Assembly (NCBI GenBank): GCA_008632985.1
Contig: QPGO01000033.1
Span: forward strand, 496,001-560,000
DNA from: Psammoneis japonica
Lineage: Eukaryota
Direction: 5' to 3'
DNA: 64,000 bases
Positions within the stretch are counted from its first letter, which is position 1. The number at the start of each line of letters is the position of its first letter. The position numbers and the translations under genes are program-made. The notes under the pieces were generated by a model that was not told the DNA's origin, did no database searches, and saw only the letters and a list, made by a program, of their open reading frames with translations. Below, one piece after another: positions 1 to 43,166 of this stretch.

Positions 1-919
1 TCAATGTGGAATTCATTTTTTCTTCACACGCCTCCCGACGGGCAAGGGAATCACCAGCCATTGTCACTTTGTTCTTTGTGTTGCCGATTTGGTCCGGAGT
101 GAGGCATTCCTTGACATTGTCTGCCTGAGAGCCCGGGTCGTTAGAATCGCACGGCACAAGAAAGCTGTTGACGAACAGGCACCACTCCTTTTGCGATTGG
201 ACATGGCAAAAAATCTGCATGAACCAGCAGTCGAAGTCATTTTGTTTGCACTGAACGTGACGCGTCACGATTTCGGTGACAAAAAATGCACCATGAAGGT
301 CTTGTGCACGGTCGTCGATCAGTTTTTTGAGATTGTCTTCCTTTAGAAACTGGAAACAAGGCTTGCCGGAAACGGGATCATTTGGGTCATCACCGGCGAC
401 AATCGTGTGGACAAATTCTGCCATGGCTTTGATGTTGCGGTGAAGATTCATGCGGTGCTCTTCTTGTTGAACTGTCTCTCCGGGTGTTTTGGAGAAACAG
501 AGAGCTTCATCCAAATTTTGATGACGAAGGCAGTGTTGACCTTTCAGCGAGTGGGATTTCTTCAGGGACCAACCACGAGTCTTGATGCAAGACCAAACAT
601 CAGGGCATCCAAGAGTTTTCCTGACAATGTTGTTGGCGCGGATGACTTCCGCGACATGTGGAATTCGACGTAACTTTGGCTTGTGGCAAAGGAAGGGAAG
701 AGCAAGAAATTGCAGAGAGGGAGTCCATTTCGTCGACTCCAAAAACTGCTTTTTGGATGCACGTGTTGAAGTCATGCTTTTGAGCTTGGGACCAAACAAT
801 TCCATTCCAAAACCATTGGCAAAATGTTCCATGTCATCAAAATCACATTCATCAGGAAATTGGAAGGAAGGATCAGGGTCGACCTCGTCGTGAGACGGGG
901 TGAAGTCGTTGACCGCCAT
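1..919 (-). pseudogene. Long open frame (306 codons, open past the window edge), unknown protein, apparently hypermutated Tyr->His/Cys
   Basis: Manual translation from ATG at 919: MAVNDFTPSHDEVDPDPSFQFPDECDF...RIPHVAEVIRANNIVRKTLGCPDVWSCIKTRGW...DFDCWFMQIFCHVQSQKEWCLFVNSF...EEKMNSTL, with no stop and no Tyr. It is missing from the ORF track because no stop lies in the window. Confidence 0.7.
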
Positions 920-1684
920 GGCAAGAGGTCAGTTGTGATTCGCGTAGAAAGCACGTGCATGACAACAGCACATGCTCAGGTGGAAAGCAGTTTGGGGAGA
1001 GGATGCACTGTTGTAAATTGCGCAGATGATTGCGCATGTAGAATGAGCACCCGATGCAGGGCAGAGACCCATGCACAGAAATTCCGGGAGGCACTGGAAA
1101 AATGACACTGGAAATGTGCATGGGGGAGACTGGAGCATGCCGAACAGCAGAGGACATGCCAGTCAACACGGTGGGGTGTGTGTGATGTGGAGATGTTAAA
1201 AACCAAAATCAAAGATGTCGGTTCAATGCAAATGCAATGTTGAGATCAAATGGAAATTTACAAAATCCAACAAAAGTGAAAATCGAATTAAATTGTTGAG
1301 AATGATCAAACACAAACAGATGACAAATGTTGGCATAAAACGGACTTAATGAGTTGAGTGTGTTGTTTCAATTTAAACGCGAAAACAACAATCAAAGGTG
1401 CAATGAAGTTGACTGCAATTGGCAACATTCGCACATGGAAAATTGAAAACCACTGCATTGCCGCCTCTGATGTGGATGACTTCTTAGATTTTACAACAGA
1501 AGCCAAGGGAACAAATGTGTCCTCTGACCCAAGCTGTCAAAGGCAATGACAAAAATGGAAGTGACCCTTCAGTTGCGCGCACGACCACAATGAAGAAGCT
1601 CAGCAAAACGACTTTTGATGATGACGATGACGACAACACCCACCATGAAAATGCAACACTTGGTTGCTCTTCCATGTGCAGCAC

Positions 1685-1840
1685 AACAAACAAATGATGC
1701 CAGCAATGAAATTCAATGGACAAAGCCAAATCAACGAAGCACAAACGATGCAGCAAATGGCGCACGATCAAAAACCACAACACTGCACAAAACGACTTCA
1801 CACAACAATGACAAAACCTGCCACAACAACATCAGAGGCA
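1685..1840 (+). repeat. Dispersed repeat, copy 1 (copy 2 at ~4091-4260)
   Basis: Shared blocks caacaaacaaatga..ccagc..tgaaa and gatcaaaaaccacaacactgcaca. Confidence 0.8.
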
Positions 1841-2365
1841 AATTTTCATGAATTGTCTTGAGGTCTGATTGTCACCCAAGTCATGAAGACCTCCCCCGCT
1901 TGCTTTCTGTGGCTGCCCGAAATCATTCTACACAAATCTTCCCATCAACCAAGTTGCTCACTCGCGATGTTGCGTTTGATCTCCATGACCGGCTCCTTGA
2001 AAAACTTGTTGGCTCTTGGCAACCATCCCCTCCCTTGTTGCTCTTCCTTGGTGCCCTGCATCATCTCCTTCTGTGCCCTCCTTTGCCGGGTGCAAGTTGC
2101 TTGGCACAAAGCACTTGAGTCATCTTGTGCACTTTCTCTTCGTTGCGACAGCCTCCTTTTGCATGAGCCCCTTGTTGGCGATGCTCTCAAGCTCGTTCGC
2201 AACACCCATCAGAGCTGAGAGTCACTCTCTTGTCTTGTCCCGCCCCTGTGTCATTGGAAATGGCCACGCTGCTGGTGTGAGTTTTGAATCTTGCACGCCA
2301 TCAATTCTCCAATGAAACTCATGGTGAAGCTTGTCTTTGTGCAGCTTGCCTGTTTTGTCTGGTCA

Positions 2366-2632
2366 TTTTGTGCAAAGCGTGAGTGCGGCGCTCAGAAAAG
2401 CTTCTTCTTTGACATGAGATCTCTTGCCTTGATGATGTCTCCACCAGACTTTTGATCATCGACCATCTGCAACATCAATCCCCCAGCAAAACTTGCAGCA
2501 AAACTTGTTCTTGTGCTGCACACCTGTTTCGTTGCACAAAGCGTGAGTGCGATGCTCAGAAAAGCCTCTTCTTTGACATGATCTCTTGCCTTGATGATGT
2601 CTCTGCCAGCCTTTTGATCATCAGCCATCCAC
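2366..2632 (+). repeat. Diverged direct repeat, ~105-bp unit, ~164-bp spacing
   Basis: caaagcgtgagtgc..ctcagaaaagc.tcttctttgacatga..tctcttgccttgatgatgtctc occurs at ~2373 and ~2537. Confidence 0.9.
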
Positions 2633-3483
2633 TTGCTCAGACTGGTCTGTCTCTGAGGCACAGCTGCAATGATTCTTTGTTCTTTTTTGTGTCGTGTGTT
2701 TGCCTGCACTTGCCGTGGCTGCACTGCTTTGCACGCCATTGCAAGCCGGCCCTCCCTTTTTTGTGTTGTCTCTTGAGTCTTGTGGAGCGATGGTTGTCTT
2801 TTTCCCCTTTTTGTGTTTTTTTGCTTGCCTGAAAAGGGTGCCCACTGTGTTTTTTTTTGCCACAGCACATCTGCACTTGAATTCAAACACACCCTCCATC
2901 CAAAAATGATGGCCATTTCTGCGTGGCTCATGTGCGAGGAAAATGTGCTTTCACCAACCTCTCGAGTCGTCAACCACAATGACCATGATGTGGCATGTTC
3001 GGGTTGATTTCCAAGTCTCATGGAGTGAAAATCACCAACAACGTGTCATGTGACATGACCACAACAATGAACACATGTCATCAGATGCAGCGCATCCCAT
3101 GCTGAAGGCATGTTTTGCTGCCAATTCATTGATCAGCCATCTCAAAATCACTCATGAACTTGCTGCTTGTGTCAAAAGGAAGGAGCCTGTTCTTTTTTTT
3201 GTTGTGTTGGTTGTTGTTTTGTGGTGACCATGTGTGCTTCACAAAAGGCAGAATGAGCATCAACGCCATCACACTTCATTGTCATGGTGGGGTTGAGTTG
3301 TTTGGCAGCTCTTGATGATGCACGCAGTGCAGTCTCACGCAGAGAATCCACGGACTCCTCGTTGCACTGCTTTTGCGGTTCTGCGCTGCTTCACAAAAAA
3401 CATGGGGGATTGGATCTGCAGATCACAGGTGGAAGGGACAAATGCCCCACACACGATTGGTTGGACAAATGCTGCAAACAGAA

Positions 3484-3800
3484 CATTGTGAGTCGACGGC
3501 GAGGATGGGTTTTTTTGTTGAGGGGGAAACAAAAAAAAAATGAAAATTTCACTGAATGATTGACACTTGTCGTGAAGATGGAAATGCAGCACTTTCGATG
3601 GCAGCGCCACATGCAATGTGAAAATGAGCATGTTTCAGTTGGAACGAAACTCAATCATTCAGCGATGCCATTGTGAGTCGACGGTGAGGATGGTTTTTTT
3701 GGGGGAAATGAGACAGAAATGCAGTGCCATCAGCGGAAATGCATGCACAATGTGAAAACAAACATGTTTCAGTTGGAACAAAGTGCAATCATTCAGAGAC
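3484..3800 (+). repeat. Diverged tandem duplication
   Basis: cattgtgagtcgacgg.gaggatgg at 3484 and 3669; caatgtgaaaa..catgtttcagttggaac at ~3614 and ~3748. Confidence 0.85.
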
Positions 3801-4090
3801 AAAGGAGCAATGCTGCCATGTCACTTGGCATGTTGACATTCAAGTCAACAAGTGCACATTGAATGAGGTGCACCTGGGAGCAATGAGTGCAAAACACACA
3901 AATCAGGACAGTGAAAACAAATGAAAATGCTGCACTCCCAATGAGTGAATTTCGACTTCAATCTGGAGGGGGGTCGACCAATGTTTGCACGTGTGTGCAT
4001 GCAATGAGATGGTGGGGTTTGACGACCTGTGACTCATGGCCTTTTCTGCGGGTCTCTGATGAACAAAACACTTGGCTGCTCTTCTCAATG

Positions 4091-4260
4091 CAACAAACAA
4101 ATGACACCAGCTGTGAAAGCCAATGGATGAAGCCAAGCCAACAAAGCACCAGCACAAACAACACGGCCAATGGCATTTGATCAAAAACCACAACACTGCA
4201 CACACAAAACAACTTTGTGCGATGATGACAATGCTTGCCACAGCATCAAAACATTCAGGC
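4091..4260 (+). repeat. Dispersed repeat, copy 2 of 1685-1840
   Basis: Aligned by eye to 1685-1840. Confidence 0.8.
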
Positions 4261-6838
4261 ATGCTCTTCTTGACACAACAAACAAACATGACAGCCAACT
4301 TGCCAAGCCAAATCAATGAAGCAACATCAAAATGGCCAGCAACTGACGCAAAAATTGAGTCCAATGCACTCAAAATTGCCTGCGGGTCCCGGTGGCACAC
4401 AAGAGTTCCCAGCAAGGTGCCCACACACCACATCTCTCATGTTGTTGTTGCTTGCATTGCCACTTCCATGACATGGCCTTCTTTTGCTGGCAAACTGCAG
4501 ATGCAAGGGTGGAGCTGCACACCTTTGCAGTGGTTCCTCTGGGGATCTCGCTTGCATTTTGGGAGACGATGCCATGGGCAATTCCTCTGTCATCACTGTG
4601 ACAGGCAGTGGAAGGAGTGAGAGGTCAAACAAAAGCACCAGTGGTGGTGGGATCCTTTTGACAGCAATGGAGATGCACGTCTTTGAGCAGGGTGTGATGG
4701 GTCGAGCCTCAATGGGAGCTGAAGAGGAAAAACAATGGGTTGGTGCCGATGGTTCCTGAGCCCGTGAAAAGTGCACGACAAACAGCACAACTTGCCAAAC
4801 ACAAATCTCTCAGAGTCTCCATTGTTGAGAGCACAAGTGGTGTCTGGGAGAGCAAGCATCTTGCAAAACAGTGGCAACATCAAAAGAGGTTGTTGTCAGC
4901 AGCCATGGTTCTGTTGTGGCAAAAAATTCTTGCTCTGGAGGTGTCACAGCAACTCAGCATCCAGGTTCCATCTGTGATGATGACTGCAGCATGTTGTGCA
5001 AGGCGGTGTCACAGTTTTTGGCATTGGAGTGTCTGGTAACTCCACTTGGCAGTGGTGTCAGAGAGTGTTGGTGCAATTGGCACTGCAGCTGCTGGCACGG
5101 CAATGGCTGGCGCAGCATCAGGCAGCATCAGGCTTGGACTGATGGGTGGCTGTGTGTCATTTTTCATTGTGGTCTTTGGCACACAATGGAGCATCCAAAA
5201 ATTTAGTCAGCAATGTTGCTTGGAGCAGGCAGCCAACAGCACTGGCACTCACTTGAACTGACACAATTGGCCATGGGTGCAAAAGAGGGGCGCAAAACAT
5301 CTGGCAGCTCCAGCGCATTTAATTTCCTGTGCTTCAATGCCCAGCCTTGACTCTTTGTCCTTTGCCAATGTTTTCATCTTTTTGGAAAACTTGGCGCCAA
5401 TGTTGTGGAGCTTTGTTTTCATCAGCAGCCAGGAACAACAAGTGTGTGCTTGCCTGCCAAGTCAGTCTCTCAAGCAACAAAGCTGTGCTTTCTCTGACCC
5501 TGTCTGTTGGAGATTGGATCAGCATTTGTTTTGTTTCTTTCCATGGCCATTGGTGCTCCATGAGCACCTCAACTTCTTGAAGCACCACCTGCACTTCTTT
5601 CTGGTGAGTTGTGCTGTGCAACATTGTGCTCGCACCATTGTTTTTGTTGCAACGTGCATTGCACAGCATTGAGACCAGGATGGCAGTTCTTCTCAAAGCC
5701 CTCTTTGTCTGCACACTCTTGTTCATGGGCACAAGCACCAGTCTTGCCATGAGATCTGCAGCCACAGGCATTGCACTGCTCTGGCTTTTCACTTGGATCA
5801 TTGTTGTTGGCAGCACTCTTGGGGCAACAGTTCTGGAAGGTTGGCAGAAAGGTTGTGCACTTGAATGAGCCAAAACCCATCACCCATCTGACGTTGTCTT
5901 TTTGTTTGTGCCATTTGCTCTCAGCTGGGAGGGGTGCATGTCAGAAGAACCTTGTCGCCCCCGCACCCACCTCAACAAGAAGAAAAGCAATTTTGTCACA
6001 AAGTGTGGCATCTGCAGAAAAGCCCACACAGGTTGATCTTTGTGAAGCAGGCTCTGCTGGCAGCGGCCAGTTCTCAATGCATGCACTTGAGTGCTTTCTC
6101 AACCCACCTGACAAACCAATGCTTCTGCCGCCATTTGTGTCGCCCCTGAAAAACACATTGGACATGCAAAACACATCATAAGGTCACTCCACTTCTCTCA
6201 ATGAAGTTGACAACAAGCGCGCACACACATTTTTTAACAACTCTTTTTGGTGCGGTTGACCCGCCAACATGGCCAAGAACACAACACTGGCAGAGGAGAG
6301 TGGAAGCAGCAACAATGCCACAACTTCCTTCATGGGAGCCATGTGCCATCCTGATGATCTACCATGGAGCAAATGTCAAATGGTCTGGGAAGGTGCAGTG
6401 TCCCACCCTCCGTCTGCACCCACCAACCTCCACCCACCAATGGGAACCACAAGCCCAACAAAAGACTTGGCTTGGAACCGATGACAACAGACAATCGGAC
6501 AAAGATTTGAGGAGTGCGTGGCAAGACACCTAAAATGGACGCTCTATCAACTGTTTTCTGCTCCTAGTTTCTACTCTCAGGAGACTACATTGGCTCTATC
6601 AGGAATCCATGGTGCTGGTTGTTTTTTTAGTGCCATGACAAACAAAACTCTAATAAACATCAAAATTCGACTCTAGAGGCACAACCATCACGAAACATGC
6701 ACATCAAACACCGCACCGGCACAAATGAAATGATGCAACTGTCGGTTGCCATGCAGAAGGAACAACCGCATCTAGCTAGAGTCAGCCAAGGTCATCATTC
6801 TAAAATCAGCACACTATCGGAAACACCTAAATGGGCTG

Positions 6839-8087
6839 TTACTTCCTATACGCATTCCAGTACACTGTCTCGTGCTGTAAAAAACAAAAACAAGAGCAGT
6901 CCATGATGAAATGAGCTGTACAGTGAGCAAACAAGAAATAAATGCAATCTACTCTACTTCTTACCCTGAAGGCAGTTCCACAATTATGAAAACCAATTGG
7001 TTCTCCGTTCTGGGTTACAACGACGAGACAGTCTTGTTAGAGGGAGGTGTCAGAATTACTGCAACAGCATATTACTCTTTCTTACCTTTGGGTGATGGTG
7101 CTGAGTTACACAGTATGGAATGTCATCATCCGGCCCCATTTCGGCTGGTTCAATGGTAAACTCGACTTCCTTTGAGATTGGCTTCCATTGCTGATCCATT
7201 CGCCTTCGATCACAGTCTTCAATTGTAATGATTTTCTTGTTGTAGCGAGTCATACACAAATCGTGATCCGCAAGTTTCAGTTGAATAAAGTCTCCCACAT
7301 ACCTGACAACAAAGTCTTCGCCTCGTCCACCACCACAGTCCCAGATCCATAACTGTCGCATGTGTTTGCACGACGCTCTTTTGCATGGGGGAGGGAACTG
7401 GTCAAAGTTAAGTTTGGTGCATTGCATGCACTCCAAGCAGTACCTCTGTTCCTTTTTCGATTCCTGCCAGAAATAACTTTTTTGCCAGTGTAACTTGATT
7501 CGAAACTCGTAATCTGGATCAAAGGGACCATATGACGGGGCGCTGGATATGGAGGGTGATTCGGATGGGGACGTGGTTGGGTATTGAGTCGGTTCAAACG
7601 ACGGTGATAAACTCGGTAGATCCGACGGTGCAATTGAGACAGAGGGCGCAAGAGAAGGAGAAGTGCTTGGAAAATCTGAAGGAGCTAGAGAAGGTGAGAG
7701 GGAGGGCTCCAAGCTGGGTTCTGACGAAATGGTAGGTTCAAACGAAGGATGTCCTGATGGTTTCAAAGTCGGCGTGGCGGTTGGTGATGCCGAAGGCTCC
7801 AAAGAAGGAGCTGGAGACGTTGATGGACTTGAACTGGGTTCAGGGCTGATGGTTGGGGAAACGCTCATCGAGGGAGCAGGCGTAATCGGTCCCGGTTGCG
7901 CCCCCGTCCCGGATGCCGAAGAGACCCTACTATTGGTTTGCGGGCCGCTTTTCACGACGACAGCAGTGATGGCAATGATGGCAGCCACTGCAACAACTAC
8001 GGAGGCAATCAGTGGCTTCTTGTTTACCATTCTGAACGGGGACCCGCCCTTTTTAATAGTAGGAACGCTCTCTGAAGGCGGATCCAT
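6839..8087 (-). CDS. Type II membrane protein: N-terminal TM, Ser/Pro/Thr-rich stalk, C-terminal Cys-containing ricin-B-like domain; 3 exons
   Basis: TM IASVVVAVAAIIAITAVVV; PSxxPS repeats; LCM..IEDCD..QQW motif. Two GT-AG introns join ..QHHHPK|NGEPIGFHNCGTAFR|HETVYWNAYRK*. Confidence 0.8.
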
Positions 8088-9570
8088 GACTGCGTGTAAT
8101 AAATGAACGGCGATGAATTTTATGATCCAGAAGTGAATCGTATCGATGGGAGTGTTCGCCGTTTTTCGCTTCTTCACCGCAATGCAGATTTTTTGATTTT
8201 TTAAATTCGTTTTAGCATCAGATAATCACATTTGTCGCTGACGCACCCTTTTGATACAGATAGTAACGCCTTTCTTCTTCCTGGCCGTTGAACGAGCTAT
8301 GTTTGCTGCTGAAATTTCAAATTTTTGATATTGAACGGTAATTTTAAGAGAATATTTCATAGTGAAAATTGTTCTGCAGCAAGTTCTTTACACGACAGAC
8401 TTTTTGGTATACGATAGTGTTTTTTTATCAAAACATTCAAGAACAAGAAGTGTATCACATCTCAATAATTTTGATACTCCGGTGAACAAGGCTCTTCTTC
8501 ATTTTCAATTTTTTAGCGCAATTTTTTCGATTTTGGCATTATTTGCGGTTGGCACTGGCACTGCCTGAAATGGAAATGCATCAACGACGTGAGCTTCATG
8601 ACAACTGTGGCCACTTGAAACAGAACGCGGCTGCACTGCTGCAACTTGAAATCATGATCTAGAAATGCTTAGCATTGAATAAGATGCAGTACAGTGTATG
8701 AACTGGACTGTAAGGTACGAAACTAACGAGCAACAAAACAACATGCAACATGCGCTTCTGGTTGCTACTTATTAATGCGGCGCAGCATGGGAGAGTGATG
8801 ACGATGCTCTAAAACACAATGATAGGTCACCAGTATATTGGTGAGAAACTTTCAATACAGCAATTGACTCCTGTTGTGCTCAGAATTGCACCGTGTGGTC
8901 CAGCACATTCAACATGAAGCTGTTGAATTTTCAGTTCTAACTCTCACTTTTTGTTTTAGTCATCTGTGATACCAGCCGGAGGTGTGGTAGCTGCGATCCC
9001 AAGCTGATTTAATTTCATATTTCGCGTTTATCAAACTTCAGATTTCCAGGCCGGCTTCTCGACATCTTCGATTTTGGTCGTCCTGAGCTTGCTTGATTTG
9101 AGCTCTTCAAACTTGAAAGCTCTGGAGTGAGCATGAGTTTGCTCGAACGAAAATTGCTCCGATCGAGTTTCTGTTTGATTTTGTACTGTTCAGATTGACA
9201 GCTCTGTTCACTCTTACGTCGCCGAATGTCGGGTGGTATCATCGGTTGTTACTCTTTACCATGCTGTGGCACAACTTATGCTCTCACTTCTACTGTACCA
9301 ATCGCATCTGCCACATGTCTTGCTGCCGTCCTACGGTATTGTCAAAAGGCTAGGGTGTCATCGAGCAAGGCGTGGATTGATCAGTCACGAGTCCTTGCAT
9401 CCGAGCCAGGCACAAAATGAATGTCCTGCTAGCTGCAAAAACGAAGCATGGAAATGCTGGTCACATGCTGTTGGTCGATTAACAAGCTATGCTGAATCAT
9501 TCTGTTTCTTTTGATATTGAGCATGGGGTTCCTACGTATTTAACCTACTACACTGATGACATCTTCGTCT

Positions 9571-10068
9571 TCAATCCGTACTCCAGTTGTCTTGACCGTC
9601 GGACTTGCTACATTTCTGTAGAACGATGTAATCACCAACGGTTCCAGTTTGACCTTCAAACACAACGCAAAACTCGGTGTCCTGGAGCCTGATGACGACC
9701 CCATCGCTGTAGTCAAACTTCTGAAGAGGATTCGAGGAGTCACACCTGTGAAGACGAAGTTTCTTCCCTTCCTCGGGAGGTCCTTCGTAACCAGCTTGCG
9801 CGCAGTAGTCGCTGTCTAGCTCGCTCTGAAGCAACCCGCTGCTACGAATCCGAAATCCCGTACATCCCGTGCCTAATGCGAGCTTGGGATTACAGTTGCA
9901 GATGGAAGCTTCCACACCAAGGCAAAGGCCGTCGGCATCGTCACTGTTGAAGTTGGTGTATTCACCTAGGTTCCGATCATGCTGGTCGGGATCTCCAAGT
10001 CTTTTCCATCCGGCGTGGACACCTTGAAAGTACAACGCAGCAACCGCAAAGAATGCAGAGAGTTTCAT
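9571..10068 (-). CDS. Secreted ricin-B (beta-trefoil) lectin-like protein, 165 aa
   Basis: Signal peptide MKLSAFFAVAALYFQGVHA; repeated C-x-x..L..C..(Q)xF/W units. Confidence 0.75.
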   Translation of the reverse strand: MKLSAFFAVAALYFQGVHAGWKRLGDPDQHDRNLGEYTNFNSDDADGLCLGVEASICNCNPKLALGTGCTGFRIRSSGLLQSELDSDYCAQAGYEGPPEEGKKLRLHRCDSSNPLQKFDYSDGVVIRLQDTEFCVVFEGQTGTVGDYIVLQKCSKSDGQDNWSTD

Positions 10069-11068
10069 GTTTGAATTGTGGTTTTTGTTGGGAGACGTCT
10101 GCGATTTTATGAGAGAATGAATAGCGGTCGGAATGCCATCACGAGTTGTCGAGGGCGGGAAGATTTGGTCGCGATCCGCTCATCGCCAATACCCGGGACT
10201 CGCACTTGGCGTGTATAGCAAATATACGTGTATGAAGGTTTGTTCCGGGCATTTGAATCCCGGGTTATCGCCATGCAGTCACGAATGCGCTTTTTTTCTT
10301 CTCGAGTCCGCGGATGTGGACTTTTTTCGAAAAGGTGCTTTCTGAAATAGAAATCAACTCACACACGCGATTTCAATCGAATTCAAAAGCGTACCGTCGC
10401 TAGAGATCCGCGGTTTCCCTTGGAAAGAGCAACTTGTTCGTGTCTTGCTTCGGCGCATTCTGAGTCGGAGTTTTTGAGCGGTGCAGTCACGCACGCCTTT
10501 GAAGATCAATTTCTGGGAACAAACGGAGACGTTCACTCGGGGATACATTTTGGAAAGTAGGAACATATTCGTCGACTGTCGACCAACTCGTTGACTTTCA
10601 AACCACCAAACCGATCACGAGGCAAGCCTGAGTTGAGACGAAGATGACGGAGGAGGGACATCCGACGTTGAAGCAACGATGAGACTCTCATCATATAATT
10701 GTATTGCATCAAATGCTTCGCTCGGTACTGCTGCTTCTTCACGAGCCGAGGGAGCTCTTGCTGCTTGCTGTCTCTCATCATTGTCATTCAGCATCTCTCG
10801 CTGTGAGCATGGTGAATTGCGCGCGAAATCGCGAAAACGATGGCGCACAAATGATACATCGTAGAAAACATACTGATCTGTACGTGAAAGATCTAATGGT
10901 AGCACTTCCGCGTCACCGCGACACGTACGTACCTCGCGACAACCCTCCATGCCATGCATTCGACATCATCAATCATCACTTTGTTGGTGTGCATAAGCAT
11001 TCTATCTACGACGTAGCCCCTTAGAATTGTGACTTGTGATCTTGAAAGGAGCAGCAACAGCAATAAAT

Positions 11069-11629
11069 ATGGTCTGTTCGGTCTATAAAGCGGCTGCTGT
11101 CGCCGTGTGTTGCTGTTTGGGCAGTACGTTTGCTTTCACAGCGCCATCATCTCCTGCTACTCGATCGATGAGAACGGTCTTATTTGCCGACGAGGAACCA
11201 GCGTCCGAGACACCGGCAGAGAAGCTAAAGAGGAAGTCAGAAGCTTATGTTGAGCCACGTATGAATCCTGACCGCCCAGAGTTGCCGGAACTGAAGGGAG
11301 ACTTTGACTGGGATGCTAAATTTGGAGGCGATGATGATTGGATTACCGAGGATGTGCCCGGCAAGATCGTACTCAACGAGATTGAGTTAGCCAAACAGAT
11401 TGCTGAAATGGATAAGTTAGAAGAGAAATGGAGGAAGCAGCGTCTTCAGGAGGAGTATGACGAAGCAAGGATTTTGGGCTTCACCGAAAAGGCAGAATCA
11501 TTCAATGGACGCGCAGCCATGTTCTTTCTCGTGGTGGGGCTTTTGACCGAGTACTGGACGGGCATTACTCTACCCGGACAGGTTGAAGAGATGCTTCGCG
11601 TCGGTGGTATTATTGGAGTGGACACCTAA
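11069..11629 (+). CDS. Plastid-targeted LHC-like one-helix protein (OHP2/HLIP-like)
   Basis: Signal peptide plus TFA-FTAP cleavage motif; chlorophyll-binding helix GFTEKAESFNGRAAM..LLTEYWTG. Confidence 0.85.
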   Translation: MVCSVYKAAAVAVCCCLGSTFAFTAPSSPATRSMRTVLFADEEPASETPAEKLKRKSEAYVEPRMNPDRPELPELKGDFDWDAKFGGDDDWITEDVPGKIVLNEIELAKQIAEMDKLEEKWRKQRLQEEYDEARILGFTEKAESFNGRAAMFFLVVGLLTEYWTGITLPGQVEEMLRVGGIIGVDT

Positions 11630-11830
11630 GTAGGAACACAGCCCTTCTGCAATCCATGCCAGCCAACCTCAAACACAGTCACTGTTGCTGTGGGCTGGTG
11701 CGTGGTTTGCTTTCGCTACAGCTAGAGGGATTGGCATAGGGCCTAGTGGACTACTTTTAAATACTTCTTTACGATACAGTGTTGTTGCTATCCAGTGTTG
11801 TTGCTATCTCGGGCTACTCGTTTTCTCTGT

Positions 11831-13454
11831 CTACAAGAGATCGTCTTCATCTTCATCCTCGGAACCAATTTGGAAGTTACCGACGGTGTCGATTAGGACA
11901 GCGTCAGACTCTACATCTGTTGTTGCTCCTGGAGGCGTCTTGTCTTCTGGACTGTTGGGCGTCAATAAATCCGTTGGCGGTACTGGAACAGGGGCAGCAG
12001 TTGAGGCTGTATCGGCAGTCTGTGTTGGCGGCTGCTCAAAGTCCACCACTTCAGTTTCATCCGCAGGTTTGGATTCACTTCCGTCCCGTTTAACCGGAGA
12101 CTTCATTTTGTTCCAGACGTTACCAGCATTTCCAAGCATGTTTCCTGCAAATCCTCCCAAGGCGGCTGTGGTTTTGCCTGGCGGAGTATCGGCAACCTGA
12201 GCCTTCATGGCCGCACGCCGTTCCCTGCGTTCCAAATTCGTTTGGTACTTTACTCGGAGACGGCCTGCAATGGATCTCAATTCTTCCACAGTCTTGGGAC
12301 CTGCTCCCAACAAGTCATCTCTTACTCGGGTTTCAGTTCGTTCTAATATCTCGGGAAAGTCAAACACAGTAACCTAAAGATAATGAATATGAGGAAGAGA
12401 CATGAGTACTATTTCGCGAAACACATGCATCATGCACGCTCAACGGCTCAACTCACATTTCCTTTGTCTTCTCCGTGCAAACTAGTTGATTTGCACGGTT
12501 CATAGCCTGGAATCTTCCGTTCTCTTCCCATTTCAACCACAACGTCGGCAATCATCATCATACATATCTCTTGCAATGCCAAAATCGCGTAGGGGTCGCC
12601 AAACATGCGCCAGAAGGGTTTCTGTGAAAGCAACGCGTCCATCTTGTCGACTGATTTTGAAAACATGAGGAATTTTGCCATCATATCAACCACGTTGATA
12701 CCCGTAATGCCAAAGGGTAAAATGGCGGCATCGCCATTGCCGTAAAACCGCGCCACCACGGTAGGGCAGCTCTCCACAAGATACACAAGCAAGGCTAAAC
12801 TAAGCACACCGCCACTCCGAAAATCCGTTACGGGATCTTTCTGTTGAAACCCGAGTCGATCCACCCAGTACTCGTGAGGGACAGGTGGTAGTCCCTTGTC
12901 ATCCAAAAGCGTTGGAATGGAGTGGTCTGGCGTAGCCATCAAATCTTGAGGATTTCTTTGATGCGGCATGATCGCTCCATTGATCCAGAGGCGCGTAATC
13001 AAATTATCGTAACTAATCACCATTTTTCCCGTGTCTTCAATTCCCTGTTCCCACCACTGATTACAAAATGATGACAATAATAACTGAGAAAAGGAAAAGG
13101 CACATAAAAACATAGCCACAAAGATGTTTCTTACCGGCATGTGTAGGACTGCTTTTGCGCAGCAGTTCCTCCATAAGGCCTCGACAATCGCAAGCCCGGT
13201 TTGCATTTTGTGTGTAAGAGTTGCCGATACATGAGAACCTGAGATGCCACGGTTTTATCCGGTAAAGTGTACTTTGGTTGAGTCAAGTGTTGAAGTGTGG
13301 CTTTGGGTAGGAGATTTCCAATCGCTCGACCGGTATCGGCTGTGAATCGAAGTGCCGCTTGCGTTGCTTTCTGAACATTTTCAGAACCAGGAGAAGAGGC
13401 TGACGCTGCCGACGATGATTCAGTGTTGTTGTCTCCGCTGGTAGAATTCGCCAT
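11831..13454 (-). CDS. ELMO/CED-12 domain protein (ELMOD-like); 3 exons; start uncertain (frame open to 13916); apparent 1-nt deletion at ~13154
   Basis: WVDRLGFQQKDPVTDFRSGGVLSL and PFGITGINV ELMO motifs; GT-AG introns at ~13134 and ~12457. Confidence 0.85.
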
Positions 13455-15679: not shown

Positions 15680-15977
15680 TTTTTTTGTTTCACTGCGCAC
15701 TCTCGAAAATGTGAAGTCAGGTATGGGCTTGTGTGCTCTACGACTGCTGACGTGGCGCGACGTCGGAGGGAGAAAATTGAAAATTGAAATTTTGTTCTGC
15801 GTTTTTGCCGCTCAACGCATCCAACGCAAGAATCAAGGTAACGCTCACGACTTGTTCTCCGCGCATTGCTGCGATCGGCGGTCGTGCTTTGTTGAAGGAT
15901 TTGGACTGGTCTCTACCATAAATTTTCAAACATACACAAGCATATTATAACAGTCAGTTCCTTTCTTACAAATTACC

Positions 15978-17746: not shown

Positions 17747-17898
17747 TGACGTCAGATTCACCGACTAAATAAATAGCGACTTCCTTTGTTTGAATTGCCA
17801 CGTGGATGACGTGGCCGTATCTCTACTGCGGACATACCAGCACACAAAAAGCGCCTATTTTGCCGACACCTTTCCCGCCAACACGGTGACAACGTGGC
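17747..17898 (+). promoter_or_regulatory. Cluster of ACGT-core (bZIP-type) elements upstream of the Psb34-like gene
   Basis: TGACGTCA 17747, GCCACGTGG 17797, TGACGTGGC 17807, AACGTGGC 17891. Confidence 0.4.
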
Positions 17899-17996
17899 TG
17901 AGAAGAGGTTGCGAACGCCTTGAGTGACCACCCACAACTTCTCACAATTTTCAATTCCTCGATCTTCCGAACTTACCACCAAAACACAACAAAATC

Positions 17997-28790: not shown

Positions 28791-28932
28791 CAGTAGGGCT
28801 CTAGCTAATTCTAGTAGCCACTGTCTGTGAAGAGAAAATTGAAGAGTAACTAGAGTCTAGAGATAAGGTATTCCAAGCTCTAGTAGAGAGAGAGCTAGAG
28901 CGGTAGTGAAACGACAGATACTTGCACGGAAT

Positions 28933-34808: not shown

Positions 34809-35075
34809 AAGAGTCGTATTGCATTGTAACAGAAGATCAGCGGTAATCATAGACACAATCGGGCGAAGCCTTGTTTGAATAGAGTAGGGGACACGGTGTG
34901 TATAATAAGGCTAGACCCGTAAGAAGCACCACGGTCAATCGTCATGATGAGTTGACACTTTGAAAAATGAAACTGGTCTCCATGACAGCGAGGAGTGTCT
35001 GTTGCATCATAACTCGATTCTCGAGTAAGAGAATCAGTTATTTGGGACCCACTTATTCATTTGTGTGTGAAACAT

Positions 35076-35595
35076 CATGGTGAATAGAGGGCCACTGATA
35101 ATCATGCATTTGAAAAATTACCCTGTCCTGTGGGTCGGGATGAATTCTTGAATCAACAAGTTTCGCTCTTGCTGCTTGGTGTCAATCCGACAGTTTGCCC
35201 CCCTTGCCTGAGGCCAATGCCTGCATTCACAAGAATTTGATCTGTGAGAGTGTTGAGTTTTTCTGTTCCTCCCTCCAATTGAGGAAAGCTCAGGTGGGAG
35301 GGGATGTCATGTGGGCAGGCAGATGACAGAATGATTTCTTTGTGCTGCAGCTCTTCTGCTTGATCTTTTTAATTTGTGGGCAAATTCACAGAGCGAGCTC
35401 AAGAAAGAGGGGAGTTCTCTTTGAGTGGGCTTCTTCTTGCCAAATGATCAAAGCTCTTGCAGAGAAGAGATTTTGACTCTAGAGCACTTTCCTTCAGGTT
35501 GACAAAAGTGGCACAGTTTGAGGCAGCACCACACCAGTTGTCTCCTAGATTGCATCTCTTTTCATGACCCACTCTCACTTGGCACAGTCATCTCA
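35076..35595 (-). pseudogene. Decayed coding segment paralogous to 38271-38745
   Basis: Translations align: LNTLTDQILVNAGIGLRQG vs INTVTGQILVNVGVGLKQG; both contain GPLFTM. Confidence 0.6.
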
Positions 35596-36299
35596 TGTAA
35601 ATTTGAGGTTTTGCATTTTAAAGCCACTCAAGCACCACACCAACTGTTGAGATTGGAGCATCTCTGCCGGCCAGTTGGATTGTTCAAGATGGAAGCAACA
35701 CAAAAGGTCATGGCCCACCTGAAGAGCCAATGCAGTTGGGGTTAGATTGACTTGTGCCACCACCACACCGTTGCTTTGTTGCATTTTGGTTTGTTTTCCT
35801 GCCACAGCACAATGCCAAACATGTCAGGTTTGGCAAGCCAGAAGCAACAAAAAAGTTCCCACACTGTCTTTGCATTTTTGCCTTCTTGCTTTTGCATGTG
35901 GCTTTGCCTTCCCAATTTTGACAGGCTGTGTTGGGCAATTGATTGAGTTGTCAGTGCAACCTGCATGGGCATGTGGGGTGCACAGCCCCAACAAAAATGC
36001 TTGGCTGGACAAGTTGACATTCTTGGCTTGGCTCCTGTTCCCAGACAAATGCACTGCTTGAGAAACTCAAATTTTTTGAGCAACCTGACTCTGTGTGCTT
36101 GTGTGTGTCATGAGTCAATTGAAAGTCCCCAGCAGCAGCAGTCTGGGTGCACTTGAACTTCTTGTTTGACCAATGCCTCTGGGCCTGGCTCTGTGCAAAA
36201 ATCCTGCAATCTCTTCACAGCCTCATTTTGTTTGTTTGTTCTCAGACAAGTTGAGGACATCCTGCAATGGCTGACATACAACAATTTTGTCAAGTGCCT

Positions 36300-37680
36300 T
36301 TGTGTGAGCAGATGTCAGGGGCATTTTGGCTGTGCTGTTTTGCTTAAAAAAAAAAAGAGCTCTTGCCAATTTTTCTCCACACTCTGCTCTCAACCCTGCA
36401 CGCAGCAACCACATTTGAAAAATGTCCTGAGAGTCTCATTGAGCTGGTTGGTGCTTGAGTTTGTTGGTGAAAAACTTTGGGCCACAATGTGATGAGAAAG
36501 TGTTGAGCCAGGATTGGCTCACACTGAGGTGCACATGGTCAAAACATCACATTCATTTTTTTCATGCTGTGGCCATCAAATTTGCCACCAGCACCATTGA
36601 CACAACATTGCCAAACTGTGAGCAAACAAGCCCAGGCTGTTCATTCACAGTGCACCTGTTTTGTGTTGCCTGAAGATCAAATCACAATCTCACAAGTGGG
36701 CACTGAAGCATGAGCAAGTTGGCACAAGCAGAGCTGAAATGGCAAGATTCAGAGAGAACAGCTTGTTGTCACAAAAACACAAAAGTTGCTCTTTTCACAT
36801 GAGTGGAGAACAGCCAAGGATTGCAAAAACAACTTTGTTGTGGCTGCTGAGCAACAAACAAAACAATGAACAAAGCTCTGAACAAGCTTCACATGTTTCA
36901 CAAAACACATTGGAGCATTGATTGGCCAGGTGTTGTTGGCTGTTGTTAGTTTGCAACTGGAGAAACCAGGGAATGGAACTCATTGGCTGCATTTTTCTGC
37001 TTCTGCTGGCAACCACTTCAAAGTTGCTTTGTCACCTGTCTTTGGCAAAAATTGGTCTGTTTGTCTTGCCTGGAACTTGTCAAATGCCATTGCAGGCAGG
37101 TCAAGGTCATTTTGTCAGTTGTGCTGTTTGGCTTGAAGAAAACAAAAAGAGATTTCACCAACTTTTGTTCACACTTTGCTCTTGGCCCCACAGTTTGGGC
37201 AAGCAGAACTTTGGGCCACAACCATTGTTCTTGCTGAACTGCAAGCACAGAGGCCCAGGCTGTTGATTCAAAGTGCATTTCTTTCATGTGCCCAGAGGTC
37301 CAACAACAATCTCATGAGTGAAGTGTGAACAAGTTGGCTCACACATGCAGAGAGCTAAAACTGGCAGATTCAGAAAACATCTTGCTGTCACCAAAAACAC
37401 AAAGCTTGCCCTTTTCACACAAGCAGGTGGGCTGCCAAGGATTGCAAAGACAACTTTCTTGCAGCTGTCCAGCAACAAACAACAATGAACAAAGCTCTGA
37501 ACAAGCCTCACTTCACAAAACACACGCTGGAGCATTGACCAGGTGTTGTTGACAAACCAAAAAATGAAACACATTGGCTGCACATTCCTGCTTTTGCTGG
37601 CAACAACTCATGAGTTTGTGGTTTTTGTTTTTGGCAAGAACAAGAATCAACTTGTTTCTGTTGCCTGGAATCTGGGCACA
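36300..37680 (+). repeat. Diverged tandem duplication (units ~36300-37080 and ~37080-37680)
   Basis: gccaaggattgcaaa.acaacttt, aacaatgaacaaagctctgaacaagc (~36862 and ~37481) and aactttgggccacaa are each present twice. Confidence 0.88.
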
Positions 37681-38270
37681 TGAGAGTGAACTTCATTGGC
37701 CATGTTTTCCACTTTGGGACAGAAAGAAAGCACCAGTGAAAAACAAAAATCAAATCATCTGCACATGCTTCATTTGCTGTCACTTGGGTTGGTCTTGTTT
37801 GTGGCACCATTTGCTGTGCTGTTGTTTTGAGGGAAAAGTGCAGCAACACACATGGTCTCCTCTTTTTTCTCTTGAATTTGTGTCACTTTTTCTCCACAAG
37901 TTCTTCTAGAACATCTTGCATGCTGGGAAGGGGGTCAGCGACATCTTGTCCCATCAAGCACTTGCATTTCATTGCCAAACATTCCAGTGAAGGTGAGCAC
38001 TTCTTTGCCATCTCTTTTGTGTGACTGCTTTGTGCTCTTCTTTTCTCACAAGCAAGAGTGCCATGTTGACAATGGGCTCCCCCATGCCTCACAAGAAACC
38101 TCCAATGCTGGGAGTGCCACCCCCCATGCCTTGTCTCAATGAGTTTCACACTTGACATCATCAGGCAGTTGTTGAATGCATGCAAAGACTCTCCTCTTGT
38201 TGATGTGTCTGCAAGAGTGACACCACCATCTCAAAAACATTTTCAGCAGCCATCCTTTCCACTCTGGGTT

Positions 38271-38745
38271 CATGGTGAAGAGAGGGCCACCAATCATTGT
38301 TGATTTGAAACATCCCAAGATCCTGTTGGTCCAGATGAATTCTTTTTCACTCAACAAGTTGCACTTTCTGCTTGGGTCCTCAATGTGACAGTTTGCCCCC
38401 TTGCTTGAGACCAACACCCACATTCACAAGAATTTGACCTGTGACAGTGTTGATTTGCATTGCTCCTCCACAATCAGAAAGAGCCAATGTGGGAGGAGAG
38501 TTCATGTGGGCAAGCAGATTGCAGAGTTGCTTTGTGCCAGCAACACCTTTTTTGCTCATTCTTTGCAATTTGCGTGAAAGAAAGAGACAATGGGAGTTCT
38601 CTTTAAGTGCACTTCTTCCTGGAAGATCAAAGCTTTGTCAGCTGTTGAGACTCCAGAATGCCCCATGCCAGCACCATGCCAGTTGTCCTTCAGAACAATG
38701 CCTCTCTGTGCATGACCTGTTCTCACTTGGCACTGTCTCATCTCT
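38271..38745 (-). pseudogene. Decayed coding segment paralogous to 35076-35595
   Basis: Shared catggtgaa.agagggccac, gacagtttgccccc, cattcacaagaatttga and tctcacttggcac blocks. Confidence 0.6.
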
Positions 38746-41700
38746 CTTGCTGCAAGCTTGAGGCTTTCTTCCACTGAAGCTGCTCAAGCATTGCCAACCA
38801 TTGAGATTGTGGCTCATCTGCTGACCATGCAATTGGGTCATTCAAGACAGACATGGGTGGAAAGCTCATGTGTGCCCACAGAGCCAGCACAATGAGTGTC
38901 AAACTTGCGTGCAATCTGGTGCTGTCGCTTTGAAGCATTGTTGATCAAACAAGCTGTGTGGCTGTTGGATGCACACAAAATGCACTTGTTGCGTCTTTGC
39001 ACTTGTGGACACAAAAAATGAGGGCTTTGTTGTCAGGTCATTTTTTCCATTGGAGCGCAACATTTCTTCCTTGGTGCTGTTGATGGTGTGTTGTGTGTCC
39101 AAATGCTGCTCTGGCACTGTCAGAAGAGGAGGACTTGCCCTGAGCTGAAACTGGCTTCTTCCAATGGCATCAGCACATGATGAGCAAACTTGTCCCAAAT
39201 GGGATGCATCACATGAAGTGTTTCACTCTCTCCAACAGACATTGGCACACTTGATTGTGGGTTCTTCTGACACCTCCACAATGGAATCTCAATGTGCGTG
39301 CAGACAAGATTGCACTGCTGGCTGGTGTCAAATGTTGCGTGCAGGGGACACTTTGTCAGTGCCTCGCACGTGCCACACTGCCTGGCAAATTTGTTGATCC
39401 AAGGCTGCTCAACAACACTCAACAGCTGCACATCAAAGTGCAAGTCTGTCTTGCAAAGCTTCAGATCCAGCCCTTTAAAAGCACATGCAGGAGAAGTGTG
39501 GGTGGTTTGATGAGGTGTGTTTGAAAAAATTGATTTGCAAGTGGGCCTGTGCTCCAGGTTGATGTCTCACAACATGCACTGCAAAGCCAGCTGGCACAGT
39601 CAAGCTGCAGCAAAGGAATTGCTGCCCACTGATGAGATTGTCCATTGATGTAATCTCAGTCACCCTGATTGATGCGTTTGTCATTGACGTCCTGTGTGGC
39701 AAACCACAATTGCATCCTCTGGTGTTCTCACAACAAAGCATGGAGACAACCACTCCTCCAAAGTTTGCACAAGGAGTGCAACACCAGTCACATTTTCCAT
39801 CCTCTTCATGACTTGCCCCCATCTGCTCTTGACTCTTGGCTTTAAGAGGGAAGATCTTGCGCCCCCAGAAAACACACAATGCAGTGCACAAGCAGCAGCA
39901 GCTTCTCAGGATGATGATGCCACATTGCAGCACCATGTCTTCAATGGTCATTTTTCCATCTTGTGGAACAAGGCTCAGCTCTCATGGCTGCACGCTGCTG
40001 GAAAATGGGCTGTTTTGCCAGTGCCAAGGTTCAGGAGAAACTTGGCACTGGGCTGGGCTGCTGTGATTGGAGACATTGTTTGGCACCAGCAGCAGGACAT
40101 GTGGGACCCTCACATGATGATGCCATCCATGGTGAGCACAATGCAGAAGAAACCAGAAAGAAGTCAGCACAGCATCATGAGGGCCCATGATGTGCAAAAG
40201 CTGAAGTGGGGGCAATTCGCTTGAGGGCTGGTGCCTGTCATGAGACAGGGTGCACTCACTCCTTGATTTGCCAGGCAACAACCTCGCCACTCCTCACTCA
40301 ACACATTGGCAGAGAAATTGGTGGCCACAGTCAAACAAATGTCCAAGTCAAGCACTCAGGAGGCTCAAAAGTTTGCCACCAGAGGCACACACCGATGCTG
40401 TCACTTGTTTTGGCACCAATCTTTTAGCTGGCTGTTGTTGTTGTGCACTCCTGCTGCCACACCACAAGTGCCACTGGGGGAGTCAGTGATTTTGGCTCAT
40501 TGCTGGCTGGGGTTGCTGGGCACCAGAAGTGTGGCAACAATCAAAACACTGATTTTGGTTTGTTCATGCCTTTCTGGCACTTGCACTTGCTGAATCCTTT
40601 TCCATTGGGTGTCAAAGGCAAAGACCATTCCTGGCTGTTGACAGCACTGCACACATGCGCACAGTTTTCCGCAGCTTGTGTTGTGCCCTGTGGCAGCATT
40701 TTGTTTGTCACAAAAGGTGCTTGGCTCACTTTCAGTTTTTGGCGGTTGTGTTCTGCATGGCATCTTTGCTGGTGCACGGTGCACATGCTCTGACGAAAGT
40801 TGGGGGTCAACTTGGTTTTGACTGAAATGAGCTGGTGAGAGCTGTTCTCCTGGTTTGCTGGGTGCTGTGCTCTGTTTCCAACAACACTGGAGGAGTTGTC
40901 ATCATGAGGAGCCAAAACTCTGTGCTGTGCACAACAATGCACACACTGCCACCATGAATTGGCTGAGATGAGCCACTGGACAGATCTCATGTTGTGTCAT
41001 GACAACAAGGTGCAAATCCTGCAAACCAAAATAAAAGAAAAAATGGTCACCAAAATTTGAGTTGAGTTTTCTAGCATGTTGGTTCCTCCTTTGGCAGGAA
41101 CTCTGGACATGAAGTGAGGAGGCGTGGAGCCCAGGTTGGATCATGTCATCATGATGCACATGAGCATTGAATTTTAGAGCTTGCCCCTCAACTGGTCACC
41201 TGCCATTTTCAAAAGTGTTGTGCTGTCAAATTAAAATGTCAAACACACTCAATGGGGCATCAAAACAAAATGTGCTCAGTTTTGAACATGTTGCAATCAT
41301 GTCCAAGCCAGTGGCTGCTGTTGACACACAAATTGTTTGTTGCACATGGCCTGGTGCTCTCCTCAGCAAAGTGGCAGCTGCTTGATTTCTTCTGTGGATG
41401 TTCCACTCTGCTGTTGCAGTGCACAATTCCGTGGGAGAGGGATCTGGAGTTGCTGTCTCCTTTGCAGTCAAATGGGCTGGAGTCCACTGTGGCAAAGCAC
41501 CCCTTGACATTGCACAGCACATCAAGCAGGAACAGTGCAGGGCAACTGTGCCAACGTGCTCTTCTTGTCACAGTCAAGCCACTTGCAGGCCTTCTTGATG
41601 TCTGGAACATCTGGTCCAATGTTGTGAGTGAGACAAAACAAAACAGCCCTGGTGGCTTGTTTTGGGCAGAAAAGTTTGCTTCTGCTTGGCCCCTTTCCTC

Positions 41701-43166
41701 AGGGCTTGTTCTTCTTTGGCTAAGCACAAAACAAAAGATGTTGATTGAGCAACATCCTGGCTGCATGAAAATGGAGATGATGAGTGCACCTTCACACAAG
41801 AATCTGAAAGGGCCACAACAATGACCCCACCCAGCTTCAAACATGTTGCCAAGATTGGAGAGCACCTTCTAACTTTGACATTGGCAAGAACAGCCTTGTC
41901 AGTTATGAAGAAAAATTGCCATGGCACTGTGCCAGTTTGCCAGTGGCTGGCAAAGCAGCTCATGTTTTTGACGGAGAAAACACTGAGATCATGCCTGATG
42001 CACCCCAGCTTTGCAAGGCTGTGGCAGTGCATGGGGGCATGTGTGTTGCCCAAACTTGATGCAAGCAGCTGCAAGAGCACAGCCTCTTGCTTTTGTGCAC
42101 TGACAACATGTCACTTGTGAATGTTGGTGCTGACAATGACCTCCTCTTCAAATTCTGTGGTTCTCCTCCTTTGATGGAAATGGCTCGGCTGATTTGCTCC
42201 AGCTTTGGGCAGGACCTTGCAGCACTGGACTGTGACAGAATGATTTTTGATCATCATGTGCTGCACAAAAGTCATGTGCATTTTTGCACATGCACTCTTT
42301 TGCAAAATTGTTGCACTCATCCTGTTTTGTGAAGCTGGCAGAATTTCACTTTGGCCACTCTTTTGAGAACAAGATTGGACTGGTCCCTTTTTTAGTGTCA
42401 GAAGAACAAAGCTGCTCTGAGCACCACCAGAAATGATGCACTTCAGGCATGTGGGTGCTTGAAGTTGATCATGGAATTGCCTCTTTTTCTGTTGGCAATC
42501 ATCAGCTTGCTCACACTGCCTGGTGATTTCTTTGACTTCTTGTCACAGAGCTCACCACATGCACAGAGCTCTCTTGGCAATGTCACATGGCAGCACCTCA
42601 CCCAGGCAGGCACATGTTGGCTCTGAAGGTTTGCTGTGCTCTTCAAGAGAGACTTCCCACCATGCAAACAACTGCATTTTGCATTTTTGTCAGTGTGCAC
42701 TGCCAGCACCCACAGCCCACAACTGCTTGTGGAAACTGCAACTGAGCCACAAGAAGCCACCAGATTGGCAGCGTTTCTGTGATTTGGAAGGAAGGGGTGC
42801 CTTTGACTTCTCTGCTTTTTTTTTGCCAGCACCTGAAGGGTCACCCACTGTAGCATGCAGCTGCATGATGTAAGTGCTGTGGCCCTCACTTGCTTGCCCC
42901 CTGCTTGGTGTCGATGGTGCTTGACGCTTCTGATTTCTGCCGCAAATTTTTGGCGCGAGGCGGCGGGCGAGAAATCCTCAGACAGCAGATGCGAGTGCGA
43001 GATGAGCGTCTGCAGTGTCGTTGAAAGCAGCTCACTGTTGATGCCAGAGCCTGAGCTCTTAAACTACGGCATATGACTTGAGTGCTGCATATAGAAGGGA
43101 TTGCTTCAGTACAAAATCTCTACCAGCTGAAATCGTTATAGAAATATAGTCTCACCGGTGGTTCTC

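Follow-up and report, generated by a model that had tools for sequence, protein, structure and literature searches.

The window, the whole stretch of 64,000 nucleotides analysed here, comes from a chromosome of the diatom Psammoneis japonica (contig QPGO01000033.1, positions 496,001 to 560,000). Outside two unusual islands, its genes are ordinary eukaryotic ones and contain few introns. Among them were genes coding for NAD(P) transhydrogenase, a PI3/PI4-kinase, ankyrin repeats, a protein of the bile-acid/sodium symporter family, a WLM protease, ELMO, an FSH1 hydrolase and NmrA-like reductases. The frame at 30873–31970, encoding 2-oxoisovalerate dehydrogenase, showed 68–71% identity to proteins of the diatoms Mayamaea, Attheya, Epithemia and Seminavis and at most 74% identity to unnamed proteins.

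The two islands were characterized by an almost complete lack of the dinucleotide TA. Their extents and dinucleotide counts, and those of the remaining DNA used as the background, were as follows:

1..6500, no strand: island 1, 21 TA, 164 CG, 713 TG and 704 CA in 6500 bp
35150..43050 (approximate), no strand: island 2, 26 TA, 47 CG, 946 TG and 879 CA in 7901 bp
Background, 48,502 bp of the window: 2139 TA, 2657 CG, 3554 TG and 3343 CA

Taken together, the islands held 47 TA against about 635 expected. The density of TA was 3.2 per kb in island 1 and 3.3 per kb in island 2 compared with 44.1 per kb in the 48,502 bp of background, and the corresponding densities of CG were 25.2, 5.9 and 54.8 per kb. 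The ratio of observed to expected TA was as low as 0.03 (range 0.03–0.05) and that of CG went down to 0.08. TpA was about 13-fold depleted and CA + TG 1.6–1.9-fold enriched, TG and CA being raised about equally in both islands (713/704 and 946/879), with a GC content of 0.46–0.49, similar to that found elsewhere.

Island 1 extends past the left end of the window. Its right edge was abrupt, with dense TA resuming at 6531. The left edge of island 2 lay at about 35120–35200, with dense TA up to 35119, and its right edge at about 42900 when judged by CG and at 43055 when judged by TA, dense TA being present from 43060. The edges at 6531, 35120 and 43055 were sharp to about 100–200 bp and TA was normal in the flanking frames, which for island 2 are the ordinary frames 33783–34808 and 43518–44543. 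The change at TpA was confined to discrete regions and the neighbouring genes were untouched. At the right edge of island 2, a CpG-rich patch was noticed (42912–43019, 11 CG in about 110 bp), in which CG was normal or higher while TA was absent until 43060, so that the TA-free zone was about 150 bp longer than the CG-poor zone. Within island 1, 11 TA were kept between 945 and 1492, nearly all of them in TAA or TAG and with TA-free flanks on both sides of this 930–1500 segment. Many loose contig ends of the sequencing runs described below fell in the same segment (1047, 1234, 1438, 1440 and 1473), and it is possibly a junction of different repeat units.

The content of CG in island 1 followed a gradient, from normal values at 1–1000 to 5–7 per 500 bp at 4001–6000. 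In the first two bins (1–500 and 501–1000), there were 28 and 21 CG, which is normal, and only 2 and 2 TA. TA loss is distinct from CG loss, and its completeness where CG is intact indicates that it was the faster or the earlier event. Per kb, island 1 lacked 40.9 TA and 29.6 CG (70.5 in total) and had 75.8 extra TG + CA; island 2 lacked 40.8 TA and 48.9 CG (89.7 in total) and had 88.8 extra TG + CA. For the island cores, the missing TA + CG and the extra TG + CA amounted to 85.7 and 88.4 per 1000. On the assumption that the islands once had the composition of the background, the lost TA and CG steps returned almost one for one as TG/CA, TA contributing about 58% in island 1 and about 45% in island 2 and CG about 42% and 55%, respectively. 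Both this balance and the context tests given below take the mostly coding background as the starting composition, the ancestral sequence of the islands not being in hand. Individual contexts were imbalanced, as the rise of GTGC/GCAC far exceeded the loss of GTAC + GCGC and the rise of ACAG/ATGG fell short.

One long open frame was found in the part of island 1 where CG is normal:

2..928, minus strand: open frame of 309 aa, no tyrosine, 4.5% Cys and 4.2% His, lying under the highest summed read depth

The absence of tyrosine (0 of 309 residues, compared with 2.8% in the 4047 aa of eight host frames, P = 1.5e-4) and the raised Cys and His are as expected from TAY codons changed to CAY or TGY. 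According to the genetic code, the change of TA to TG or CA removes TAA and TAG or turns TAA into TGA; it makes no new stop codon, which is why the frame stays open. We read it as a probable hypermutated, repeat-borne gene, on the basis of its composition. A word-indexed homologue search with this frame returned nothing at E ≤ 0.001, and a protein atlas gave no usable hit. None of the 107 stop-to-stop frames of at least 75 aa in the islands reached the Pfam threshold, so neither reverse transcriptase nor any other domain was found in them; the only hit was a match to NRDE-2 at 4698–5036 (22.1 bits, below the cut-off of 34). Rfam gave no matches across the 64-kb window, and Tandem Repeats Finder detected nothing in either island.

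Three coded sequencing runs of one sample supplied contigs, which were aligned to positions 1–20000 of the window. A total of 1008 contigs matched, 258 of them at a likeness of at least 99%, 278 at 95–99% and 472 at 90–95%. The summed depth, which is not a copy number and was taken only as a sign of many related sequences, was 2227–2789 over 1–1334, 370–812 over 1335–4669 and 55–67 over 8005–20000. This depth and the 1008 matching contigs suggest that 1–4669 belongs to a repeat family. The differences between the contigs and the window were mainly transitions (191 places versus 96). In run X2, loose contig ends were found at 1766 and 1798; read by eye, they continued in register with the window, with 20 of 30 letters identical at 1736–1765, and around 1740–1765 and 1799–1828 they carried TA or CG at places occupied by CA or TG in the window. 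Less mutated relatives of the repeat were therefore present in the same sample. X2 contigs gave next to no cover on the island, and no RNA data set was listed for 1–8000; neither result was counted as evidence on expression.

These contigs also bear on the question of whether the islands could be an artefact of assembly or base calling, in which base modifications on heterochromatic TA and CG would have been misread as TG and CA. Systematic miscalls from modified bases are known in some long-read data, and the platform used for sequencing is not on record. On the other hand, contigs of run X1 (word depth of about 55–64) matched 4526–6161 and 6132–6999 (1636 and 868 bp) without a single difference, although X1 may be the assembly's own data and its support is then not independent. 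Many diverged copies with transition differences aligned as well. An artefact of this kind was considered highly improbable.

The self-BLAST of the window returned 15 repeat pairs, nine of which lay within the two islands. The copies discussed here were the following:

2368..2470, plus strand: repeat copy A, CA/TG swaps relative to copy B at 2371, 2442 and 2468
2532..2632, plus strand: repeat copy B, 88% identical to copy A, with CATG where copy A has CGCG
1655..1831, plus strand: repeat copy, paired with 4067–4248 at 72% identity, 7 swaps and 7 columns of CG facing TG or CA
4067..4248, plus strand: repeat copy, partner of 1655–1831
3484..3665, plus strand: repeat copy, paired with 3669–3799 in two blocks of 94% and 85% identity
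3669..3799, plus strand: repeat copy, partner of 3484–3665
36314..37051, plus strand: tandem-like repeat copy, paired with 37100–37640 at about 74% identity, 8 swaps
37100..37640, plus strand: tandem-like repeat copy, partner of 36314–37051
35075..35589, plus strand: left copy of a direct, LTR-like repeat on the edge of island 2, a few TA and CG kept
38270..38737, plus strand: right copy of the same repeat, about 3195 bp from the left copy, 7 swaps in the pair

The initial annotation had reported that repeat copies differ by swaps between the dinucleotides CA and TG. All 12 strings quoted for it were found in place: TTGTGCAAAGC at 2368 and TTGCACAAAGC at 2532, GTCTCCACCAG at 2437 and GTCTCTGCCAG at 2599, CCATCTGC at 2463 and CCATCCAC at 2625, and the strings at 1696/4103, 1719/4126 and 3608/3742. 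The difference quoted at 1705/4112 turned out to be AA versus TG, hence no swap between CA and TG. In the pair 3484–3665/3669–3799, the aligned part contained one swap, and the difference quoted from there was a double swap (3610–3613 versus 3744–3747).

In seven local alignments of island pairs, with 1246 ungapped dinucleotide columns, 25 of the 81 adjacent double differences (31%) were swaps between CA and TG, compared with 6 of 114 (5%) in the 1768 columns of four alignments between repeats from the rest of the window (Fisher p = 1.9e-6). Swaps were far commoner than other double differences, contrary to one of the two outcomes that the initial annotation had named as fatal to its proposal. 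They also exceeded the chance level found when the letters of the second copy were permuted among columns with the same letter in the first copy, a procedure that keeps the substitution matrix. In 2000 such rounds, the island pairs gave 4.06 ± 1.87 swaps and no round reached the observed 25, whereas the control pairs gave 4.23 ± 2.0 and 489 rounds reached the observed 6. The swaps are real and specific to the islands (25 versus 4.1 by shuffling), with no excess among the repeats elsewhere in the window. The observation made in the initial annotation was borne out; what had escaped it is the larger feature behind the swaps, two entire islands free of TA.

The control repeats in TA-normal DNA comprised tandem duplications at 27494–27708, 27949–28800 and 53114–53563, with units of 98, about 280–390 and about 212 bp and 76–80% identity, none with an excess of CA/TG swaps. 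An inverted repeat of about 555 bp with 64% identity (23396–23947/24746–25303) was also located in TA-normal DNA.

The directions of the swaps were mixed along each alignment, including all three 7-swap pairs, in agreement with the proposed process being strand-symmetric over the length of an alignment, and the tandem copies A and B, only 164 bp apart, still differed by swaps. For the pair 35075/38270, the 7 swaps compare with about 18 expected by arithmetic if every conversion postdated the duplication, and many conversions may therefore predate the duplications.

The composition of the islands could in principle result from selection or avoidance with no mutational drive, the islands being descended, for example, from a virus or element in which TA and CG are avoided. 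UpA and CpG are under-represented in many viruses. Such an origin was judged highly improbable. An observed-to-expected ratio of 0.03–0.05 is too extreme for it, no recognisable gene was found in the islands, a tyrosine-free frame is implausible as a functional design and the swaps between copies represent independent changes at the same columns.

Another source of such marks would be editing of RNA or cDNA (ADAR-like or APOBEC-like) during retrotransposition, with the copies inserted already hyperedited. A section of island 1 is a member of a multi-copy family, island 2 contains the LTR-like direct repeat and ADAR prefers a U before the edited A (bioRxiv 10.64898/2026.01.13.699255), all of which would suit this explanation. 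It predicts, however, the marking of one strand, whereas TG and CA were equally raised in both islands, both swap directions occurred within one alignment and swaps separated even the closely spaced copies A and B. TA loss was also uniform over segments that varied in depth and CG decay and stopped abruptly at the island edges, and the 107 frames examined contained no reverse transcriptase or other domain. We regard this explanation as very unlikely. The strand symmetry, the domain bounds and the uniformity over segments of different depth and CG decay fit instead a process acting on double-stranded chromosomal DNA.

The initial annotation had traced the swaps to palindromic dinucleotides (TA or CG) that existed before the duplication and were later changed on different strands in the two copies. 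This origin gained support and both kinds of ancestor were encountered. In the island pairs, CG faced TG or CA in 13 columns and was kept by both copies in four; TA opposed TG or CA in three columns and was present in both copies in none. An example with CG is CGCG at 2387–2390 in copy A, matched by CATG at 2551–2554 in copy B. The deficit of CpG was paired with an excess of TpG and CpA and with CG/TG/CA differences between copies, and the changes at TpA likewise gave TpG or CpA.

Comparison with the X2 contigs, made by eye, was informative at a few positions. At 1740–1743, the X2 relative has TATA and both window copies have CACA, and at 1758 it has CG where both window copies have TG. Column 1751–1752 reads CA in the first window copy, CG in the second (4164–4165) and TG in the X2 contig; it is the only swap-type column resolved by a third sequence and it favours CG. 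Searches for extra copies with degenerate patterns, two over metagenome contigs and one over viral contigs, found no loci, and since no third copy was obtained, the ancestors of the swaps at 2371, 2442 and 2468 were not read directly. The flanks of the 25 swaps, counted by hand (R..Y 8; R..R or Y..Y 13; Y..R 3–4), favoured TA over CG origin by only about 3:1. An estimate of the CG-derived share by b^2/8a, with a = 4 intact and b = 13 half-converted columns, gave about 5 of 25; it was unstable because a = 0 in the pair richest in CG intermediates, and it was not relied on. TA and CG were both ancestral to the swapped columns in roughly equal shares, the share of TA being inferred and not read off.

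The context of the surviving TA pointed to a rule. Of the 47 TA left in the islands, 29 were in YTAR, compared with 344 of 2139 (16%) in the background (p = 2e-12), and one was in RTAY, compared with 652 of 2139 (30%). Scaled to the background by arithmetic, survival was 28% for YTAR, 5% for RTAR + YTAY and 0.5% for RTAY. A model with independent hits on the two strands, in which an A before a pyrimidine is the favoured target and any other A unfavoured, predicted a survival of 3.8% for the mixed class (RTAR + YTAY) against the 5% seen. A preference for A in TAY is the same statement as one for the paired T in RTA on the opposite strand.

The products followed the same direction. In the Y..Y context, the islands had 427 extra TG and 191 extra CA and had lost 322 TA and 319 CG. 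If TA changed to TG on the favoured strand and CG changed evenly, 482 TG and 160 CA would be predicted, compared with 321 and 321 for an even split. The ratio of YTGY to YCAY differed between islands and background (p = 4e-4). In 1–930 alone, where only TA is lost, this product bias was absent (YTGY 41 versus YCAY 43), although the numbers are small. A YCGR bias among the surviving CG of the islands was looked for and none was seen, which indicates that CG loss obeys other rules.

Decay of methylated CpG could be proposed as the source of all the swaps, the lack of TA being then the native composition of inserted DNA. It agrees with the 13 CG intermediates set against three for TA, with the column in which CA, TG and CG meet and with the known CpG methylation of diatom transposable elements (PMC9998398). 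It does not account for positions 1–1000, which have normal CG yet almost no TA, and CG alone cannot explain such a region; the possibility that all swaps come from CG, which the initial annotation had named as fatal to its proposal, fails on this point. The absence of tyrosine from the frame at 2–928 and the presence of TA-bearing relatives of the repeat in the same sample also speak against it. Moreover, the extra TG + CA equalled the lost TA plus the lost CG, not the lost CG alone, and the survival of YTAR with its matching product bias are traces of a mutational process. CpG decay as the only source was accordingly considered unlikely.

We consider it likely that two repeated, apparently non-coding blocks of a diatom chromosome underwent two processes of transition at self-complementary pyrimidine–purine steps, each acting on either strand. 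The first would be a fast, near-saturating change of TpA to TpG or CpA (A:T to G:C), preferring a target A with a 3' pyrimidine (TAY, or RTA on the other strand) and largely sparing YTAR. The second would be a slower change of CpG to TpG or CpA, taken here as deamination of methylated cytosine in silenced repeats, so that methylation would be its driver. As each site in each copy may be hit on either strand, duplicated copies would end as TG in one and CA in the other. For the first process, the pattern suggests adenine deamination in DNA or modification of the paired thymine as the chemistry; deamination of A in TpA and modification or misrepair of the T paired with it cannot be separated from sequence alone. 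The case is best filed as a diatom instance of TpA-targeted hypermutation overlaid by ordinary CpG decay, and the first process would represent an active, domain-targeted genome defence of the type seen in Bigelowiella natans.

Of the 302 new single-nucleotide mutations seen in mutation-accumulation lines of this chlorarachniophyte, 231 lay within an integrated NCLDV and a virophage, and 230 of these 231 were A to G or T to C, all stated to be on TpA (Mettrop et al., 2026; bioRxiv 10.64898/2026.01.13.699255). The same authors described 124 TpA-poor clusters rich in CpA + TpG in the B. natans genome and proposed an ADAT2-like deaminase as the enzyme (bioRxiv 10.64898/2026.01.13.699255). Common to B. 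natans and the diatom islands is the change of TpA to TpG or CpA on either strand, in discrete regions beside normal genes. The long-term footprint in B. natans is likewise TpA-poor and rich in CpA + TpG, its clusters being mostly unannotated, with transposon domains enriched among the annotated ones.

The two cases also differ in several respects. The host here is a diatom, a stramenopile, and B. natans is a rhizarian. The target here is at least partly a multi-copy repeat in which no viral or other domain was found, compared with integrated NCLDV and virophage DNA. The depletion is near saturation here (Rho of about 0.03–0.05), whereas Rho is 0.45 in the NCLDV region of B. natans. The preference for a 3' pyrimidine and the sparing of YTAR were seen here, while the terms trinucleotide, context, flanking and diatom are absent from the main text of the B. 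natans preprint; CpG was also lost here, and the preprint makes no mention of CpG. Mutation was measured directly in B. natans, and the diatom islands are known from their footprint in the sequence alone.

With fungal RIP, the islands share repeated or foreign DNA full of transitions in a dinucleotide context and arranged in sharply bounded, skewed islands. RIP, however, changes C to T mostly at CpA, by which TpA goes up, GC goes down and stop codons are made. In the diatom islands, TpA vanishes, TG and CA go up, GC is kept and the change at TpA cannot give rise to stop codons; the enriched TpA and lowered GC by which RIP is recognised were not found in them. The decay of CpG, as in vertebrate Alu elements, resembles the present case in the change of CG to TG or CA on either strand, in the occurrence of TG, CA and CG at the same column and in a depletion that grows with age, but it cannot explain the loss of TA or region 1–930. 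CpG methylation of transposable elements in diatoms has been documented (PMC9998398), which would suit this component. Hyperediting by ADAR or APOBEC is similar in its clustered transitions, its neighbour preference and its role as a defence against viruses and retroelements. The substrate of these enzymes is a single strand, either RNA or single-stranded DNA, and their footprint is strand-asymmetric, in contrast to the diatom islands, which are strand-symmetric and follow a chromosomal domain.

What is new here is the diatom host, with the conversion of TA as the distinctive and unusual part; the signature itself is already known from B. natans. Such targeted DNA hypermutation has so far been reported only in this one unrelated alga, and a literature search, with most subscription journals outside its reach, found no report of TpA hypermutation in diatoms. 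A wider reading, whose chances we see as evenly balanced, is that diatoms carry an active mutator of double-stranded DNA, targeted to chromatin domains and changing A:T to G:C specifically at TpA, with TAY preferred and YTAR spared. It would be an old and widespread defence of the SAR lineage and the mirror image of fungal RIP. The occurrence of the same signature in a rhizarian alga is the ground for supposing such an age. Repeats and foreign DNA would then be erased fast, long before CpG decay, with no stop codons created, and the enzyme responsible would be one that naturally edits adenine in DNA or modifies thymine.

Diatoms are major primary producers and model algae, and the ways in which they disable repeats beyond methylation are poorly known. 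If the reading is true, this TpA-specific A:T to G:C process would mean that a defence first described in 2026 occurs a second time, independently, making its distribution and its enzyme testable by comparative genomics, and it would be a lead to a naturally occurring enzyme for the editing of A:T pairs in DNA. There are also consequences for annotation. As TAA and TAG are lacking in TA-free islands, long false reading frames are to be expected in all six frames, and since hypermutation inflates the divergence between copies, dating by the divergence of LTRs or copies would overestimate age. The context rule, with TAY favoured and YTAR spared, provides a fingerprint for other genomes and for the B. 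natans mutation table.

Several minor observations were made in the genes around the islands. In the region of the ELMO-domain gene, X2 contigs skip 83 nt with GT..AG ends (12372–12454, minus strand); this segment is a probable intron, and its skipping suggests that run X2 is transcript-derived, although the run is not recorded as RNA. The NmrA-like/NAD(P)-binding reductases form tandem paralogues (18880–20035 and 20676–21840) whose DNA is 68% identical across about 1.17 kb. The upstream copy is divided between two frames, and the downstream one (21037–21963, minus strand) has a signal-peptide-like start ending in ...VVSAFGS, which we take to resemble the diatom plastid-targeting motif. Long adjacent or overlapping frames were found at 49790–51259 and 51250–53181 and at 59008–60720 and 60483–61634, the last of which bears the PI3/PI4-kinase domain; their arrangement suggests genes broken by a short intron or a frame change.
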